From a phage, in sequence record PZ583738.1: a stretch of DNA of 64,000 nucleotides. One strand, given 5' to 3'. Shown here one piece after another: positions 11,263 to 51,881 of this stretch (position 1 is the first letter of the stretch; each line of letters opens with the position of its first letter). Made by a program: the position numbers and the translations under genes. The notes below the pieces were generated by a model. The model did no database searches. It saw nothing but the letters and a program-made list of their open reading frames with translations, and was not told where the DNA came from.

Positions 11263-11287
11263 CGCTTTAAAAATTTTATGGTATAAT
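11263..11287 (+). promoter_or_regulatory. middle promoter (MotA box GCTTTA, 12-nt spacer, TATAAT) with GGGGTCTAGG extension
   Basis: Matches T4 middle promoter architecture; upstream of ORF 11334. Confidence 0.55.
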
Positions 11288-11333
11288 GGGGTCTAGGTCC
11301 TTTGGATACCCCAATAACTAAGCGAGAAAAGAA

Positions 11334-11612
11334 ATGTTTCCTACATATTCTGAAATTGTTAAAGTACTTTTTAGTCAGATTGTATCTGATTATCTATACG
11401 AAAGCGTCGACGTGTCGACTGAACTAAAAGTGCACGGTCGTTTGTCTGCTATTCTGGAAATCATGTTCCCGGATGCAGTTGATGCAATCACTGTTCAACT
11501 CACGCCTGGTGCAGCATTTGCAATTGTTCCGTTTAAAATTGATAACCACATTTTGGCTATTTCATGCAAAATGGACTTCCAGAAACAAACGGTAGTTGTC
11601 GAAGCAATTTAA
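11334..11612 (+). CDS. hypothetical protein
   Basis: 92-aa ORF downstream of a MotA-box/TATAAT middle-type promoter. Confidence 0.55.
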   Translation: MFPTYSEIVKVLFSQIVSDYLYESVDVSTELKVHGRLSAILEIMFPDAVDAITVQLTPGAAFAIVPFKIDNHILAISCKMDFQKQTVVVEAI

Positions 11613-28879: not shown

Positions 28880-28904
28880 TGCTTTAATTTTATGGCTGTA
28901 TAAT
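28880..28904 (+). promoter_or_regulatory. middle promoter for uvsY (MotA box TGCTTTA, 12-nt spacer, TATAAT) with GGTTCTAGACC extension
   Basis: T4 uvsY is a known middle gene. Confidence 0.6.
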
Positions 28905-28932
28905 GGTTCTAGACCCTTACATTGGATACATT

Positions 28933-34639: not shown

Positions 34640-34665
34640 TGCTTCAAATAAAATTGTGGTATAAT
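34640..34665 (+). promoter_or_regulatory. middle promoter (MotA box TGCTTCA, 13-nt spacer, TATAAT) with GGTTCTAGACC extension; second TATAATGGGTCTA copy at ~34713
   Basis: Upstream of rnlB. Confidence 0.55.
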
Positions 34666-34763
34666 GGTTCTAGACCCCTTTGTGACTATTAATTCCTTTC
34701 AGAGAAAGAAAGTATAATGGGTCTAATTTATAATGATATTTATAACATCAAAAGTGAGAGATT

Positions 34764-41273: not shown

Positions 41274-42847
41274 TAGAAATCCTCTTCTTCTTCTTCAGGG
41301 TTTTGGAAACGAGCCTCTTTGGACTCCAATTCAATTTGCTTAGCTTCTTGATTAATTTCTTCATCAGACATCTGGAGGAAATCCTTCATAGCCGTTTGAT
41401 GCGAAATATATTTACCGATAAACGGTTCAGCCATCGTTAGCATATTGATTCTGCGTTCCATGATTTCTGCATCTTTCATTTCAGTGAAATAGCTATCACG
41501 GTTGAACGTAACTTTAATATTATTTAGTTCCTTTTCCCATTCCTCTTCTGAAATAATTTTTTTCAGGATAAGGTTGGTTTTAAGTGGGTCGAGGAAAACT
41601 TCTTCAAATTTATTCTGTAGCTGTCGAATCCATTTAGAGAAATTCAATTCATCGCGAGTAATTGTCGCGCCCGCATCAAACATAACACCACTGTTTTGGT
41701 CATTAGGGATACGAGATAATGGAATTCGGAGCGCCTGATATAGGTTGTTCTTAAACCAGCGAACATCGTCCATATCCGACATGCCTTGTGCACCCGGGAG
41801 TGTATCAACTTCAGTGACTGCTTTACCATCACGACGTTGCAACCAATAGTCTTCTGTCATTGACATGTTGTGCTGTTGGTTTTTGATTTTACCCGTAGTT
41901 GCATCATATACGACACGGTTTTTCATCGTGTTCATAATATGTTGCATGTGTGCTGCTGCTTTACGGGACGGCATATTCCCGGTATCGATATAAAAGACTC
42001 GGCGGTCTGGGGCACGAGTTATACGATAAATGACTAAAGCATCTTCTAATAGTTTTAATTGGTTTGCAGGTTTAATTGCTCGTTGCAAGTATCCGATGAT
42101 ATTCTTGCCACAACAATCGAGTAATCCAGAATGCGCATATACAATCGCCGCACGAGGAATTTTTATTTTAGTACCTGCTTCATATATACGACCATCGGCA
42201 CAATAACTTTCATGGCCAGTATCGTATACAAAATATTCTCTGTAACCGTCGACAATTTTTGTACCGTTTTCCATGCGTGTAACGATTTCACGGATGAACT
42301 GGATTTGTCTTGGGTCAAGGCGACGAAGTTCTTGAACTCCATCTTTAAGTTTTGATGGGTTGATAATTTTGTGGAAGAAAATTCGAGAATCCACATACCA
42401 ACGTTTAAAGTGGTCAGAACCTTTGCGCTCGAAATTAAGGAGGTTATTGACTTCCGAGAATTCTTCGAGGATTCGGTCTTTAATTTTCTGACTAAATTCG
42501 GTAGCATCAAGGTTAAGAGCTACAACATCTTTACCGTCTTCAAAAACGATAGCATCAGACACAATTTCTTGCACTGCGTTATCAACTTCATAATTATTTA
42601 GTAAGTTGCGGTAGGTGTCAATTAATTCCCTGGTATTTTTTACTTCAGGTTCATTGCTCCCGAACATCTGTTGCATCAATGCATTATACGGGACGTTTTG
42701 TTCTTGTGACTCAATTTCACGAGCCCCATCATCAAACTTCGGCCCGGTCATTGACTCTAAATTATTTTTTTCTTGTTGCTTATATTCTTGTTCATCTTCT
42801 TTAGCCCAAGGCTTAAGAAAATTTAGTATTGTGTTAAAACCTGCCAT
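41273..42847 (-). CDS. 20: portal vertex protein gp20
   Basis: 524 aa; extensive identity to T4 gp20 ([60 protein letters not shown]). Confidence 0.97.
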
Positions 42848-42895
42848 TAGAGTCTCCGAAGTTTGGGAAATGAGGCCGAAGCCTCATAATAACTT

Positions 42896-42903
42896 TATTT
42901 ATA
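42896..42903 (-). promoter_or_regulatory. late promoter TATAAATA for gene 20, followed by 5'-proximal hairpin
   Basis: Exact octamer on minus strand; GAGGC-CGAA-GCCTC hairpin at ~42872-42886 lies between promoter and RBS. Confidence 0.65.
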
Positions 42904-42904
42904 C

Positions 42905-43396
42905 TTATTCCCACCAGTCAATTGCGAACGTTGTTTCAAACGTCTCAATCTCATTATTGGAGTCCCAATCCATCTGGACTTCCCCAACGTTGGTTGGCCA
43001 CATGCCGGTAATAACAACTTCTTTCGTAATGGTCTTGCCATCACGATGGAACTGGCGGACAGTAGCGGTTTTCTTATAATCAGCAGGAGCTGCACCAGTG
43101 ATTTCGTTAGTCATACCGTGACACAGGTTTTGCCAATCAACAATTGCTTGACGAACTTTATGAGCATCGTCGTTATAAATCGTAATAGTCCAGTCATCAA
43201 ATGTACGGTCACCCGCCACGTTGATTTTACGGTTCATGTAACCGACCGGAACTTTTTCTACAATGCCTGCTGGCATCGGGGCTGCTTTACAATGGAAAGC
43301 AAAGTTTTTACCCAGGAATGGGATTTCGACTTCGAACAGGTTAGGGCGAGCAAAGTCCCCTGACTCGAAGGCCCTGGTGATATCAGTAAGTTCCAT
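42905..43396 (-). CDS. 19: tail tube protein gp19
   Basis: 163 aa; TRAFESGDFARPNLF.VEI...MNRKINVAGDRTFDDWT matches T4 gp19. Confidence 0.96.
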   Translation of the reverse strand: MELTDITRAFESGDFARPNLFEVEIPFLGKNFAFHCKAAPMPAGIVEKVPVGYMNRKINVAGDRTFDDWTITIYNDDAHKVRQAIVDWQNLCHGMTNEITGAAPADYKKTATVRQFHRDGKTITKEVVITGMWPTNVGEVQMDWDSNNEIETFETTFAIDWWE

Positions 43397-43399
43397 AAG

Positions 43400-44083
43400 T
43401 TATTGTTTCCTATGATAATTTTCTATAAATTCTTGTAAATCACGTAAAGATATACTATTATTTATATCCTTCGAACGATTCAATTCCCACGGAATCATTT
43501 CAAGATTTTCAATGTGTCCAATGATTTCGGGGTCGATATTATTGTCAAATCCATACTTGATGGAAACCTTGTGGTCTAATTGATATGCACCTTCAATTCC
43601 AGCTCTTCCGGTCTTTTCAAAATTTGGGAGATTTTGCACTTCAGATTTAAAATTTAATGCGGTGAATTGACGAACTGCATATGCATATCGTTTGAATTCT
43701 CTTAATCTTGGATTATATCGTCCGTTTAATTCCCCTCGAGTATTTATATTGGGAATACCCTTTTTGGATTTGGAGATTTTTACGCCTTTAGATTTTCGAA
43801 TTTTTAGTCCATCTGGTGTGTTCCAAAATTCTTTACGCAAATCCGAATAAATTTCCCATCTATGGCTTTTGCAGAATTGGATATTGATGTTATTTATTTT
43901 ATCTCGTGTAACTGTATATTCAGCTCCACATTCATCACATTTACAATCAACTTTGACTCGGCATCCCAAATGTTCAATGTTGATTAAATGTGTTGTTCCT
44001 ACTGAAACATCATAACCTTGCTCACGCAAATTTGTCACATTTCTATTAGTTACATTAACGAGTTGTTTATCACTTACTATCAT
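43400..44083 (-). CDS. freestanding HNH endonuclease with N-terminal Zn-ribbon, inserted between genes 18 and 19
   Basis: C-terminal HNH core (YQLDHKVSIKYGFDNNIDPEIIGHIENLEMIPWELNRSK); CxxC...CxxH cysteines in N-terminal half; TATAAATA late promoter ~115 nt upstream. Confidence 0.8.
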   Translation of the reverse strand: MIVSDKQLVNVTNRNVTNLREQGYDVSVGTTHLINIEHLGCRVKVDCKCDECGAEYTVTRDKINNINIQFCKSHRWEIYSDLRKEFWNTPDGLKIRKSKGVKISKSKKGIPNINTRGELNGRYNPRLREFKRYAYAVRQFTALNFKSEVQNLPNFEKTGRAGIEGAYQLDHKVSIKYGFDNNIDPEIIGHIENLEMIPWELNRSKDINNSISLRDLQEFIENYHRKQ

Positions 44084-44192
44084 AGTAGCCTCAAATCGCG
44101 CACCAGAGCGATTCTGGGACGATTTTATCCGTGTTATGTATAAACACCTTACTTAAAGGTTGCGTGCTCTATAATCGTTTATAGGAGCTTTA

Positions 44193-44218
44193 TGCTTTTA
44201 TTTATAACACGGTATAAT
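44193..44218 (+). promoter_or_regulatory. middle-promoter-like element (TGCTTTT box, 13-nt spacer, TATAAT, GGGTCTAAT extension) antisense to gene 18
   Basis: Same motif family as 11263, 28880, 34640; no plus-strand gene downstream. Confidence 0.4.
44199..44206 (-). promoter_or_regulatory. late promoter TATAAATA for the HNH gene at 43400..44083
   Basis: Exact octamer on minus strand ~115 nt upstream of the HNH ATG. Confidence 0.5.
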
Positions 44219-44291
44219 GGGTCTAATCTATTCCGTTAAGCAATTACACTCAACCATAATAGGTAAGAGGGGACTTTCATCCCCTAATTTA

Positions 44292-46271
44292 TTATTGTGG
44301 CCCAATCAGCTCATCGAAATTAGCACCGGTGCTTGTTGCTACGAAATTAAGCGTGATGTAGTTGATGCTGCGCGCCGGTTTGAAATAAATGCTGGCAACA
44401 AACTCATTTCGGTCTATGACCGACGGGGTGTTGTTGGTAGTATCACAAACCACACGACCTTCATAAATGCCACCGAGCGCACGAATACCATCCAAGTATT
44501 GAGAAGTTTCCATACGGAATGATGCACGAGTGAAGTTATCGTTAAGCTCAAACAGTTTATATTTGGATGCGTCACCGATATTTTTCTTCAGCATATTCGT
44601 AAGACGGCGAACGTTGATATGGTCCATCGGAGATGGAACTTTAGTTGCAGTCTTATCACCATACAGAACAAAACCATCACCACCTGCGAAACCAACAACC
44701 GGGTTGATAGCTTCCTGATACATGCGGTCACGTTGGGTCTGACGTGGTTCAACAGCCAATTTCAGAACGTTCAGAATCTGACCGCGGTTATAACCTGCCG
44801 GAGACATCCAAGGCTGAGAAACATCATCAGTACGAGCACACAGACCAGCCATATCAGCTGCCAGAGGAACCCAACGGTTAACGTCGTTATATTTATCATA
44901 CTGATATTTATAGTTGCCATCAATCGCTGCATAAGTCGTGCTGATATTCATGTTATCAGTATCAAATGCACCAGCACCTGTACGCCAGTCAATCAGGTTA
45001 TCCACTGCACGGGTCAGAGGAACGTTAACCAACAGACCTTTCGGCGGGGAAATGAATGCCAAGCAATCCTGACGTTCGTCAGCAATAGAAACTACGTGCT
45101 TCTGAACAGTGGAAGCGGTCGCATCACCTTCACCAGCACAAGCACCAGCGATAAGTAGGTTGATATGCAGAGCTTCACGGTCAGCGAACAGGTCCCAACC
45201 TTGCATCAAATCACCAGCGGTAATCTTATCGTTTGCAGAAATACCACCAGACAGATTGATGATACCACTGAAGCCTACAGGCCAGTTGCGAGATGTTGCA
45301 TAGATGTAGTTGGAAGTACCTTTTGCAAAGTAGTCATCCAGGTAAATGTTATTACCATAAACATCTTTTTCGCCCTGCTTAGTAGACAAAACAACGTTTT
45401 CGACGATTGCACCATCGCGGCGAACGATAATTGCATATTGGTTTTCGGTCTGAGGACCATAGTTAAACACTGCACGAGCTATAGAAGCGCGGGAACCACC
45501 ACCGGGGAAAATATCCAGATTTGCAGTTGCGCCTTTTTCAAATTCAGCTTTGGATACGATTTCAACTTCAAGAGTCGAACCAATTTCACCAGGATAAAGA
45601 GCAACAACACCCGGCATTACATATTTTGCCAATGATGCCTGGAATTCCAGAGAAGTAATTGCTTCTTCACTGTTTTCTGCTTCAGTCAACAGAATGCCAG
45701 AATCGGTAACAATTTTTCCGACAGTGATGGTACCAGATACACCGGAAGAAGTGGTCGTAACTTCTGCAGTCCATGCACTGCCCAAATTAGGATACTGATT
45801 AATAGTTTTAGCAAATGCAATAATCTTATTGGTAGGAATAAAGATTGCCAGAATTTTACCATCAACATCGACCTTGGTCACACGGCCAGCTGGTTCAACA
45901 ACAGTCTGGTTGTGTTTAACCTGAATAACATCACCGACAGCATAGTTTGTACCAGCAGTTACGATGGTAGTTTCAATATTGCCAGCAATAGGGGATGCGT
46001 TTTTAGCTTCGTCACGGTTAACAACACGTACAGTACGGAGGTCATTACCATATTGCAGGAAGTTCATCCCACTCATAAAGTAATCTGCTGTTTCATTATT
46101 CGGACCACCAAACAAATCAACAAGTTCAACTTCGTTTGTAATCTGAGTTACCTGGAAAGCTGGGCCCCACTGGAATTTACCAACCAGCGCCGCACGACCC
46201 GTCGCGTTACGAACAACAGTGCTTTGGACCGTTGTTTCTTTGAGCTCAATGCCCGGAGATAATAAAGCCAT
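44292..46271 (-). CDS. 18: tail sheath protein gp18
   Basis: 659 aa; colinear with T4 gp18 (MALLSPGIELKETTVQSTVV..., NVRRL.NMLK.NIG, NYITLNFVATSTGA). Confidence 0.98.
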   Translation of the reverse strand: MALLSPGIELKETTVQSTVVRNATGRAALVGKFQWGPAFQVTQITNEVELVDLFGGPNNETADYFMSGMNFLQYGNDLRTVRVVNRDEAKNASPIAGNIETTIVTAGTNYAVGDVIQVKHNQTVVEPAGRVTKVDVDGKILAIFIPTNKIIAFAKTINQYPNLGSAWTAEVTTTSSGVSGTITVGKIVTDSGILLTEAENSEEAITSLEFQASLAKYVMPGVVALYPGEIGSTLEVEIVSKAEFEKGATANLDIFPGGGSRASIARAVFNYGPQTENQYAIIVRRDGAIVENVVLSTKQGEKDVYGNNIYLDDYFAKGTSNYIYATSRNWPVGFSGIINLSGGISANDKITAGDLMQGWDLFADREALHINLLIAGACAGEGDATASTVQKHVVSIADERQDCLAFISPPKGLLVNVPLTRAVDNLIDWRTGAGAFDTDNMNISTTYAAIDGNYKYQYDKYNDVNRWVPLAADMAGLCARTDDVSQPWMSPAGYNRGQILNVLKLAVEPRQTQRDRMYQEAINPVVGFAGGDGFVLYGDKTATKVPSPMDHINVRRLTNMLKKNIGDASKYKLFELNDNFTRASFRMETSQYLDGIRALGGIYEGRVVCDTTNNTPSVIDRNEFVASIYFKPARSINYITLNFVATSTGANFDELIGPQ

Positions 46272-46299
46272 TTTGAGTCCTCTAATAGTTTGCTTTACT

Positions 46300-48607
<2,308 letters not shown>

Positions 48608-50943: not shown

Positions 50944-51881
50944 TAGCCCACCAATATAGGAGTCGGTGCATCCAGCAGGTCAAGTTCTTCACGAAGACGT
51001 TCTTTTTCCATACGAGCTTCTTCAATTAAACGAACACCATCAACTGTGACGCCACCTGGCATCATCATTCCCTGGTGTTTAGCTAATACGTTGCCATTAA
51101 CTTCCTTAACGAGCGCCGTGGCATAGTCTTTCACCCAACGGTTGTTGTATGCACCATCTTGAAGTCCAAGGTCCTCACCTGCTCTCATGCCGCTTATTCT
51201 GCGCGCCGGGTTATCCCACTGTGCACCAGCATTCCATGGATTATCACAATCGGCCGAAGCAAAACCATAGCCAGCTGTATTGCCTACCATTGAATCCACA
51301 CCGTTATATGATTTGGTATAAACTTCAATTACAATCACATCTCCCTGACGGAAGTTGCCCATAATTTTAAGTTGTTCAGTATCGTCATTATACCAGTAAT
51401 CTGGCAGCGGAACCATCAGGTCTTGCATCATTGAACGGTATTGCATAAGCTGTGTAAAATAACCAAGGTCTGCACCAAAAGCATTTGGTCCAAAGCTGTT
51501 ACATGAGCTACCCATTCCACCGTTAATCCCAGCAAGTCCCAGAACAAAATCTGTGAACCACGGATATGTGGCTTGCCCGTCCATCGAAGTTAATGAACCG
51601 ACGTTAGTACGAATAATCTGCGTTACTGCAAAAATATTACGGCCTTTTAAATCGAAAACACCATCGCGGAATTTCTGCTGTGAAACTTCATCATGGCCAA
51701 TATAAAAAGCCTGATAACCTTTGTTATAACCATTATAGTGATATTCGCCATATAATTCTAATGCGCGCTGGATGCAATCATAAACCTGTTCGGTCGTAAC
51801 TTCGATATTCGTGATTGGCGCACCAAGACGACGAAGGATTGCATCTTTTAATTGTTTCGGGTTGTATGATTCAGTTGCCAT
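50943..51881 (-). CDS. 13: neck protein gp13
   Basis: 312 aa; position; TATAAATA ~20 nt upstream. Confidence 0.9.

Follow-up and report, generated by a model that had tools for sequence, protein, structure and literature searches.

A predicted MotA/AsiA-type middle promoter facing the late genes in the gene 18-19 spacer of Gapriverviruses

In T4-type phages, middle promoters normally serve genes. To our knowledge, T4 has one well-studied exception without a gene, the promoter of oriG, which faces a late gene. The older hybridisation literature describes an anti-late RNA of T4, consisting of bulk early and middle transcripts complementary to late messages, and the T4 origins coincide with recombination hot spots. 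Our own literature search on anti-late RNA found nothing. According to the published definition, a middle promoter has its MotA box 12 ± 1 bp from a TAtaaT sequence, and cytosine modification is able to silence or alter look-alike sites (PMC2988021). A middle-mode promoter is also a requirement of origins of the oriF/oriG type, and the rules by which R-loop origins form are listed as an open question in the review of Kreuzer and Brister (PMC3016281). In another described arrangement, the PmSL, a stem-loop is followed by a Mot-box promoter; these cassettes mark indel sites and, in the conserved core, adjoin plastic, non-essential genes (PMC4122927). For VR7, VR26, and other Gapriverviruses, a literature search returned nothing on promoters and neither transcriptome nor primer-extension data, nor any 5'-end map of a T4 relative that spans the spacer between genes 18 and 19, the locus considered here.

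In the window, i.e., the whole stretch of 64,000 nucleotides that was analysed (PZ583738.1), this spacer contains on the plus strand, at 44190-44225, the succession ttaTGCTTtt, a 13-bp spacer, TATAAT, and gggtctA, which on inspection fits the consensus of the T4 MotA/AsiA middle promoters, the box of which is centred near -30 (Table 1). The mismatch in the MotA box is at the final position, a T where the consensus has a weakly conserved A, and the box is invariant among the nine Gaprivervirus genomes compared. The predicted start is placed by analogy with two mapped T4 starts, 115371 (PuvsY, TATAATGAATCT-A) and 153011 (P34i, TATAATGGTCCC-A), with which the element has the 13-bp spacing and the start context TATAATG..TC(T/C)-A in common. 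The original prediction had proposed a plus-strand promoter-like element with an upstream TGCTTTT box; such an element is indeed present, and in silico it is a very good match to the MotA/AsiA middle class.

Table 1. Coordinates of the element, its surroundings, and related promoters of the window.
Feature	Position	Strand	Remarks
MotA box ttaTGCTTtt	44190-44199	+	TGCTT at 44193-44197; 9/10 positions match (a/t)(a/t)(a/t)TGCTT(t/c)A, consensus from PMC2988021
Spacer between MotA box and -10	44200-44212	+	13 bp
-10 hexamer, perfect TATAAT	44213-44218	+	G at -14; spacing as in T4 PuvsY and P34i
GGGTCTA directly after the -10	44219-44225	+	
Predicted transcription start A	44225	+	7 nt past the -10, context TCT-A; by analogy with mapped T4 starts
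Predicted non-coding transcript	44225-44296	+	~66-72 nt if ended at the hairpin, otherwise antisense into gene 18
Hairpin AGGGGA-CTTTCA-TCCCCT	44268-44285	unassigned	6 nt past the gene 18 stop codon
AT-rich stem-loop GCTCTATAA-tcgt-TTATAGGAGC, one bulge	44166-44188	unassigned	adjoins the MotA box upstream; weak stem, predicted on the minus-strand RNA
T4-type late promoter TATAAATA	44206-44199	-	within the middle-promoter spacer; aimed at the 227-aa ORF and gene 19
Gene 18, tail sheath, 659 aa	44292-46271	-	stop codon 44294-44292; late gene faced by the predicted promoter
227-aa ORF, gp19.1 family (PHROG 5104)	43400-44083	-	between the element and gene 19
Gene 19, tail tube, 163 aa	42905-43396	-	
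Sister promoter upstream of uvsY	28880-28911	+	TGCTTTA-12-TATAATGGTTCTA; counterpart of T4 PuvsY/oriF
Sister promoters upstream of rnlB	34640-34725	+	one with box (34640-34672); second -10 at 34713 (TATAATGGGTCTA) without box

No usable sigma70 -35 was found at the element, the hexamer at the 17-bp position (TTATGC) matching in two of six positions, and the sigma70 scan passes over the site. An early promoter of the -35/-10 type was ruled out on these grounds, and the silence of the scan fits a middle rather than an early promoter. VR26, the nearest relative to share this spacer, has annotated asiA and motA genes; in the present phage, the two genes would lie beyond the 64-kb window. The small stem-loop ahead of the MotA box, which belongs to the window-type spacer, has a bulged, AT-rich stem of 9 bp, whereas the inverted repeat of the P479-type spacer encloses the promoter.

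The element had originally been described as the fifth copy of a motif, and this is roughly right. Four copies of TATAATGGGTCTA with at most one mismatch are found in the window, two of them exact (34713 and 44213) and two with one mismatch (28899 and 34660), but the fifth, at 51725, is a minus-strand match with two mismatches that falls within a coding region, has no TGCTT box, and is probably due to chance. At two mismatches or fewer, the window has 5 matches compared with 1.47 expected, and 5 were reached in 3 of 100 shuffles. An additional relative of the motif, TATAATGGGGTCTAGG, lies at 11282.

The composite pattern TGCTT-N12-17-TATAAT provides a better test than the copy count. It has four matches in the window, all on the plus (early) strand, compared with 0.55 expected on both strands, and this number was reached in 1 of 100 shuffles. 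The three matches other than the element are located directly upstream of plus-strand genes, namely a 510-aa ORF, the VR26 counterpart of which is annotated as DNA ligase, uvsY, and rnlB. For the strict motif, the early and late strands of the window have four and zero copies, respectively, and the complete VR26 genome (171 kb) has 14 on the early and 1 on the late strand, where ~0.7 would be expected on each. The early-gene blocks of VR26 hold 12 of its 14 early-strand copies. Inside the late-gene blocks, only two strict motifs lie antisense: the element of the 18-19 spacer and the homolog of T4 P34i/oriG in gene 34.

Each of 34 Gaprivervirus records has a single copy of the 36-bp core of the element (-36 to +1), and in every case this copy is located between genes 18 and 19. 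It sits there in three contexts whose flanks cannot be aligned with one another: an empty spacer, a spacer whose gp19.1 ORF is on the side of gene 18, and one with a 227-aa ORF on the side of gene 19. Spacers without an inserted ORF that have the element are those of P479, SP18, VR20, and VR25. In the nine Gaprivervirus genomes, variation of the core is limited to positions -19, -16, -15, and -4, all of which are outside the box, the late promoter octamer TATAAATA, and the -10. Five P479-type genomes have 1 variable column out of 36 in the core, compared with 12 out of 39 from +2 to the gene 18 stop. In these genomes, the gene 19 leader on the left of the core comes close to it in conservation (10 of 143 columns variable), so conservation within one context is unspecific.

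The diverged Dhakavirus homolog, TGGTATAATGGTTTTAGG with cGCTgTA (51 records), is likewise spaced by 13 bp but lacks the late promoter, suggesting that the feature common to both genera is the promoter of the early strand and not the late one. Spacer comparison detected no middle promoter between genes 18 and 19 of T4, Mosigvirus, Jiaodavirus, Winklervirus, MY742, and GAP161, and none is listed for T4 between 75 and 110 kb. The element is thus dispensable for T4-like phages in general. A pattern scan of IMG/VR matched three contigs and added no new contexts. Among metagenome homologs of the 227-aa ORF, contig L022 shares both the leader and the promoter, and contigs of the Enterobacter-phage and Winklervirus types have the ORF homolog and no such promoter.

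The late promoter that overlaps the element lies ~110 nt upstream of the 227-aa ORF, and its octamer is found 16 times on the late and 3 times on the early strand of the window. The overlap had been noticed before and was ascribed to a late promoter of the HNH gene. The overlap itself stands, but the late promoter is not specific to that gene, since the same octamer occurs in phages without a spacer ORF; it is found at the identical place in P479, SP18, and DK-13. Given the overlap, it is reasonable to infer that the middle and late promoters may interfere with each other.

As to the 227-aa ORF itself, it may possibly encode an HNH-like endonuclease. Residues D170, H171, N181, N193, and N202 are invariant among 17 homologs; no Pfam match was obtained even at E = 10, no sequence match in the PDB, and nothing by Foldseek. 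The idea that the element is an operator or homing site of the adjoining endonuclease-like ORF, in the style of I-TevI, was set aside because the element occurs without any ORF; a second point against it is that the DK-13-type ORF has a late promoter of its own elsewhere.

On its downstream side, the element points toward the 3' end of gene 18 and is followed by no plus-strand gene, both as originally proposed. Two ORFs had to be discounted in this respect. The first, a 101-aa plus-strand ORF at 44217-44522, begins within the -10, upstream of the predicted start, and runs antisense to gene 18; it is open in relatives but with non-conservative changes, and the wobble positions of gene 18 coincide with its first codon positions. 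The second, a 44-aa ORF annotated in UPEC07, starts upstream of the promoter and finishes just past +1, and therefore lies across the promoter instead of downstream of it. Past +1, none of the three contexts (window, P479, and DK-13) showed a start codon accompanied by a ribosome-binding site.

The hairpin at 44268-44285 had been suggested to delimit a short antisense RNA. It is present as described, but in position and structure it is the equivalent of the hairpin past the gene 18 stop codon of other T4-like phages, and it is missing in the spacers of the P479 and DK-13 types, both of which have the same promoter. It is thus best read as the 3' hairpin of the gene 18 mRNA and not as a conserved partner of the promoter. 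On the plus strand, the hairpin has a stem of 6 bp (4 G-C) with an energy of -9.7 kcal/mol and is followed by AATTTATTATTG, with the tail AAUUUAUUAUU and an AA ahead of the U-rich part. On the late strand, the energy is -11.1 kcal/mol, the higher stability being due to a GAAA tetraloop closed by U.G, which is possible only there. This asymmetry in favor of the late strand was found in seven of the eight phages compared. The terminator scan flags the hairpin, yet it finds 2 in 2 kb vs 1.2 expected, which is not above chance, and as a plus-strand terminator the hairpin would be weak. A search with the Rfam covariance models gave no match at the gathering score over the whole window and only chance-level matches within 44050-44450 (E above 4), so that no known RNA family is recognised in the predicted transcript at that score. 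Neither GC nor AT skew, in 50-bp windows, has anything local at the element. A discrete RNA of 66-72 nt is possible in this phage, but it would not be a conserved property of the element.

It is rather likely, judging from the sequence comparisons, that the element is a working MotA/AsiA-dependent middle promoter of the early strand, arranged back to back with and overlapping the late promoter, and that it yields a non-coding anti-late transcript with an unconstrained sequence. According to this proposal, MotA and the RNA polymerase with AsiA-remodelled sigma70 would bind the box and the -10 some minutes post infection and initiate at about A44225, and the product would be a non-coding RNA directed opposite to the late genes. 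Many of the transcripts of this phage would probably end at the gene 18 3' hairpin or be trimmed to it, while the remaining ones would read on antisense into gene 18. In relatives that do not have the hairpin, the transcript would go directly into gene 18 or the gp19.1 ORF.

Across the three spacer types, the promoter stays but the transcribed sequence is wholly different, suggesting that the selected property is initiation at this site and no particular RNA sequence. Such initiation could matter through occupancy by the polymerase, local unwinding of the DNA, formation of an RNA:DNA hybrid, or anti-late RNA of a generic kind. A middle complex bound at -36 to +1 would cover the octamer TATAAATA at -26 to -19, such that the two promoters could not be occupied simultaneously. 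The use of the site should thereby shift from middle to late once MotA-dependent transcription fades.

We have also considered that the promoter might constitute a replication origin of the T4 oriF/oriG type, for which we see a small but real chance. The transcript would in this case remain paired, as an R-loop, with readily unwound DNA immediately downstream and, after processing by RNase H, prime the leading strand toward gene 18; late in infection, the origin would be shut off through the loss of middle transcription and through UvsW. The element would supply the middle-mode promoter that such origins need, while the formation of the R-loop requires no specific sequence (PMC3016281). A promoter that is kept while the sequence downstream is free indeed suits a primer or an R-loop better than an sRNA. 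The T4 record moreover describes oriG as a middle promoter within the late gene 34 with a primer RNA opposite to that gene, and it is the homolog of this very sequence that constitutes the only other antisense strict motif in the late blocks of VR26. The location of the element in a gene-insertion hot spot points in the same direction. The GC content of +1 to +40, 30-32% vs 40% for the genome, would also fit an origin, but the same range is spanned by 11 ordinary middle promoters of VR26, and in an unwinding-element test the composition downstream of 14 VR26 promoters, T4 oriF/oriG, and the three spacer types gave no discrimination. The stable hairpin 43 nt downstream in this phage and the presence of homologs of both oriF and oriG argue further against this possibility. 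It is thus with considerable reserve that we suggest a previously unrecognised Gaprivervirus origin, with a diverged form in the Dhakaviruses, that would be oriG-like and located in the middle of the structural-gene block at a hot spot of ORF insertion.

An active or half-active promoter cassette left behind by modular shuffling, similar to the PeSLs and PmSLs and with a functionless transcript, would be another, not very probable, explanation. The element would then be retained only through its position between essential genes and its overlap with a useful late promoter. It does lie where a PmSL, as a marker of indel sites beside plastic non-essential genes (PMC4122927), would be expected, namely right at the boundary of optional ORFs, inserted on one side or the other, and it has the small stem-loop of 44166-44188 ahead of it. 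Unlike in the PeSLs, however, a Shine-Dalgarno sequence and an ORF are absent downstream. The segment from about -14 to +1, (G/T)GTATAATGG(G/T)TCTA, recurs at other promoters of the same phage (4-5 promoters), but the recurrence is confined to this -10/start part, the whole 36-bp core being single-copy in each genome. Invading endonuclease genes can carry promoters that produce antisense transcripts (Edgell et al., PMC2988022), but the element is present also in the four ORF-free spacers named above. The consensus positions that are invariant in the 34 records and the retention in a second genus exceed what a neutral relic would lead one to expect.

It is also conceivable, although we consider it distinctly unlikely, that the block is no promoter of the early strand at all but works for the late strand, either as the distal late promoter, as the apex of the gene 18 3' stem-loop in late mRNA, or as both, with an incidental likeness to middle promoters. 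The octamer TATAAATA is located at the middle of the conserved block. In the spacers of the P479 type and of Dhakavirus, the late-strand RNA folds into a long hairpin with the element in its apical part, and this hairpin could be the constrained feature instead; the stems that enclose the block are CCGTAGAACC/GGTTCTACGG and CCCAGGC/GCCTGGG, with z values of -3.2 and -3.5. The window-type spacer, however, has the block without the enclosing stem, and the Dhakavirus homolog lacks the octamer but keeps the -10/TGn part. In addition, T4 late promoters need the octamer alone, which leaves unexplained why TGCTT and TATAAT, located 6-12 bp away on each side, are invariant. In 171 kb, a full box with the correct spacing and a perfect -10 would be expected only ~0.7 times on each strand, and the element is on the strand that has 14 of the 15 matches.

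Finally, a sequence-specific regulatory sRNA of ~70 nt with its own terminator, base-pairing with a defined target, is very improbable: the promoter, hairpin, and U-rich tail are at a suitable distance and the predicted RNA (44225-44296, -14.1 kcal/mol) folds somewhat better than shuffles (z -2.5), but the transcribed sequence and hairpin are missing in the other two spacer types with the same promoter, the segment from +2 to the stop varies more than any other part of the spacer in P479-type phages, the 5' stem differs between the window and VR26 by two changes that do not compensate for one another, a match in Rfam is absent, and the gene 18 mRNA explains the hairpin better.

With the favored reading, i.e., a middle promoter that produces unconstrained anti-late RNA, the spacer would hold a second orphan promoter of the oriG kind, genus-wide, absent from T4, and overlapping a late promoter. 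It would offer a concrete site for two old questions, one being the source of anti-late RNA and whether this RNA does anything, and the other the gain and loss of replication origins among T4 relatives. The site is also a compact natural case of two opposed promoter classes on one stretch of DNA, useful for studying the hand-over of the polymerase from middle to late transcription. Should the promoter be inactive or neutral, the finding would amount to an annotation note only.

Among the known systems, T4 P34i (oriG/ori34) shares with the element a MotA-box promoter on the early strand amid late genes, with a non-coding transcript, a predicted one in the case of the element, opposite a late gene. 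The two also agree in the 13-bp distance between box and -10, in a perfect TATAAT followed by GG, and in a start A located 7 nt downstream. They differ in that oriG lies within the coding sequence of gene 34, while the element is in an intergenic spacer, shares its place with a late promoter, and in this phage has a hairpin downstream. Moreover, oriG has a demonstrated origin activity, which for the 18-19 element is at most a possible one. T4 PuvsY (oriF) belongs to the same promoter class, with nearly identical start contexts (GGTATAATGAATCT-A in T4, GGTATAATGGGTCT-A in the element, and TGTATAATGGTTCT-A in the uvsY copy of the window), but it doubles as the promoter of the uvsY mRNA, while the element has no downstream gene.

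The PeSL and PmSL cassettes (Arbiol 2010; Comeau 2014, PMC4122927) resemble the locus in the succession of a stem-loop, although only a weak one here, and a Mot-box promoter at a border of presence and absence of non-essential ORFs inside the conserved core. The element differs from them in having neither a ribosome-binding site nor a gene, in being a single-copy cassette, and in pointing against the neighbouring genes. With respect to the anti-late RNA of T4, the element would be a defined source of late-complementary RNA under delayed-early (middle) control, whereas the T4 list has no specific promoter in the 18-19 region. The hairpin, in turn, is comparable to the gene 18 3' hairpins of T4-like phages, whose late-strand tetraloops are UUCG or GNRA: like them, it is located 6 nt past the stop, and its 4-nt loop forms on the late strand only, as in T4, PP01, JN02, and GAP161. 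What sets it apart is that its reverse complement is located 43-60 nt downstream of a promoter and is followed by a U-rich tail, so that the hairpin of this phage may act in both directions.

The window belongs to the genome of a T4-like myovirus, a member of Gaprivervirus, whose late genes 20, 19, 18, and 17 are on the minus strand and whose early and middle genes are on the plus strand. All of the features described in the original prediction are found in the sequence where it had placed them (see the table). Middle promoters combine a MotA box, (a/t)(a/t)(a/t)TGCTT(t/c)A, with a sigma70 -10 element 12 ± 1 bp away and have no -35 element (PMC2988021), and the element, located in the spacer between gene 18 (tail sheath) and gene 19 (tail tube), conforms to this published definition in all but the last, weak position of the box. 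It shares the spacing and start context of the T4 promoters PuvsY (TGCTTCA-13-TATAATGAATCT-A, start 115371) and P34i (TGCTTCA-13-TATAATGGTCCC-A, start 153011), and by this analogy the start would lie at A44225. AsiA and MotA are both encoded by VR26, the nearest relative with the same spacer type. The original observation is confirmed and its interpretation partly supported; the element is a MotA-type middle promoter of predicted activity whose position is unusual in that it serves no gene, runs antisense, and overlaps another promoter.

Features of the gene 18-19 spacer around the predicted middle promoter
Feature	Coordinates	Strand	Basis or remark
MotA-type box ttaTGCTTtt	44190-44199	+	sequence
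13-bp spacer between box and -10		+	sequence
-10 element TATAAT	44213-44218	+	sequence
GGGTCTA after the -10	ending at A44225	+	sequence
Late promoter TATAAATA	44206-44199	-	within the middle-promoter spacer
Hairpin, then AATTTATTATTG	44268-44285		sequence
Gene 18 stop codon	44294-44292	-	

Judging from the sequence, we consider it rather probable that the element is an active middle promoter, initiation from which would yield a non-coding anti-late transcript. The original interpretation is retained in so far as the element is promoter-like, antisense, and serves no gene, while its assignments of the hairpin and the late promoter are revised.

The element had been noticed as the fifth copy of the 13-mer TATAATGGGTCTA. 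Five matches do occur in the window, but this is weakly above chance (1.47 expected), and the minus-strand match at 51725 is intragenic and has no box. A better test is the composite TGCTT-N12-17-TATAAT, with 4 matches in the window vs 0.55 expected, all four on the plus strand. The remaining three lie directly 5' of plus-strand genes, i.e., the 510-aa ligase-like ORF, uvsY, and rnlB, and the corresponding T4 genes have the mapped middle promoters P30, PuvsY, and PrnlB (PMC2988021). On the whole rebuilt VR26 genome, the strict motif was counted 14 times on the early strand and once on the late strand, with ~0.7 expected per strand, which makes it a specific predictor in the genus. The lone late-strand motif is at record position 71871, between genes 3 and 2 and antisense into gene 2.

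At window 34640-34760, rnlB is preceded by two -10 elements at a distance of 53 bp from each other, a MotA box accompanying the first only and the second being TATAATGGGTCTA, with a CTTTC-aga-GAAAG hairpin between them; a minus-strand TATAAATA near these promoters (34744-34737) is directed away from gene 24. A promoter of the same subtype, cGCTTTA-12-TATAATGGGGTCTAGG, is present at window 11264-11300, 50 nt 5' of a 92-aa plus-strand ORF (11334-11612). The shared GG(G/T)TCTA(G) that follows the -10 comes close to a palindrome at uvsY and rnlB (GGTTCTAGACCC).

Sensitive blastn with the 36-bp core, exactly -36 to +1, finds one copy per record in 34 Gaprivervirus records, every time in the 18-19 spacer. 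The core is present in three spacer architectures with mutually unalignable flanks: an empty 200-bp spacer (P479, SP18, VR20, VR25, UPEC07), a 201-aa gp19.1 ORF separating the element from gene 18 (DK-13, VR7), and a 227-aa paralog located on the other side, towards gene 19 (the window, VR26, and the metagenomic contig L022). Across nine genomes, only positions -19, -16, -15, and -4 of the core vary. A recognizable homolog with the same 13-bp spacing, gtaCGCTGTAaccaaactcaTGGTATAATGGTTTTAGG, is carried by Dhakaviruses and is present in 51 records, and in this genus the ORF likewise lies on one side of it or the other; all three spacer forms recur there. Because TATAAATA is absent from the Dhakavirus 18-19 spacer, it is the early-strand promoter and not the late one that is common to both genera. 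Nothing comparable is found in the 18-19 spacers of T4, Mosigvirus, Jiaodavirus, Winklervirus, MY742, and GAP161.

The statement that no plus-strand gene lies downstream holds, no credible coding sequence being found 3' of the promoter. Antisense to gene 18 at its 3' end, a 101-aa plus-strand ORF (44217-44522) reaches the same stop codon uninterrupted in VR26, P479, SP18, and DK-13; owing to its non-conservative changes it was rejected as a gene, and it probably arises from the codon usage of gene 18. The predicted transcript has no Rfam match. The transcribed sequence is unrelated among the three architectures, and in five P479-type genomes no part of the spacer varies more than the segment 3' of the core (12 of 39 columns vs 1 of 36 in the core), which argues against a sequence-specific small RNA. 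The pattern suggests that initiation itself is the property retained at the element.

The hairpin begins 6 nt past the gene 18 stop codon, and its late-strand form, AGGGGAU-GAAA-GUCCCCU, has an energy of -11.1 kcal/mol, compared to -9.7 kcal/mol for the early-strand form with a 6-nt loop. A hairpin at the same position also exists in T4, PP01, JN02, GAP161, MY742, LC53, and Kp5N, the loop being UUCG in T4, PP01, and JN02 and GAAA in GAP161 and the window, and the late-strand form is the more stable in seven of the eight phages compared (equal in the eighth). This position and stability across relatives indicate that the hairpin belongs first to the gene 18 mRNA. The proposal that it delimits a short antisense RNA is weakened by its absence from the other spacer types and by a terminator call not above chance, but its reverse complement with the U-rich tail could stop part of the plus-strand transcripts, giving a predicted RNA of 66-72 nt. 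P479-type and Dhakavirus spacers have a long late-strand RNA hairpin right after gene 18 (comparison loci L003, 1398-1600 minus, and L008, 1250-1440 plus), in which the stems CCGTAGAACC/GGTTCTACGG and CCCAGGC/GCCTGGG surround the reverse complement of the promoter (z -3.2, -3.5).

The overlap with a minus-strand late promoter is confirmed, but its attribution to the HNH gene is not, since the same octamer occurs in phages without any 18-19 spacer ORF; it is thus a distal late promoter that the spacer had ancestrally and that the ORF did not bring in. In the window, it is the sole TATAAATA between gene 18 and the 227-aa ORF. As the middle and late promoters stand back to back and share DNA, their geometry would exclude simultaneous occupancy.

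Among the functional readings, an oriG-type replication origin alone has a direct precedent. T4 oriF and oriG require just a middle promoter followed by a segment that unwinds easily, R-loop formation not being sequence-specific (PMC3016281), and the oriG primer RNA of T4 is directed opposite to gene 34. VR26 has only two strict motifs antisense within late blocks: the element itself and, in gene 34, the homolog of oriG. The latter, TGCTTCAAGAATATTCAGGTTATAATGGTCCCAGAG (record position 153583, early strand), is homologous to T4 P34i, so that the oriG promoter is conserved in Gaprivervirus. We nevertheless consider such an origin unlikely at the element, because the unwinding-element test was uninformative for it. 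The other rival readings, likewise rated unlikely and each with weaknesses, are a PmSL-like shuffling relic and, for the conserved block, a late-strand structural element.

For sequence outside the 18-19 spacer, DK-13 and P479 are the nearest records (~98-99% identity), while for the spacer (43397-44291) VR26 is the sole match among deposited phages, with 90% identity over 1 kb and 96% in its non-coding portion. The 42000-46300 region is a mosaic, genes 20, 19, and 18 being 98-99% identical to DK-13/P479 and the spacer cassette VR26-like only, which implies that the intergenic module was exchanged as a whole. The limits of the swapped segment coincide exactly with the stop codon of gene 18 and the start codon of gene 19, as seen in the window and comparison loci L001-L005, L008, and L017.

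The 227-aa ORF (43400-44083, minus) shows 76-89% nucleotide identity among the window, VR26, and L022, lower than the upstream non-coding spacer (96-98%) and the flanking genes 18 and 19 (94-95%). Its product belongs to PHROG 5104, as does gp19.1, and has a confident AlphaFold model (pLDDT 86), with no Pfam match and no PDB sequence match; the HNH identity is a plausible candidate. Two further TATAAATA lie within the ORF at window 43748 and 43466 (minus), the second 70 nt 5' of gene 19, and this pair matches a layout described for the T4 seg and mob genes, in which the endonuclease gene contains the host promoter.
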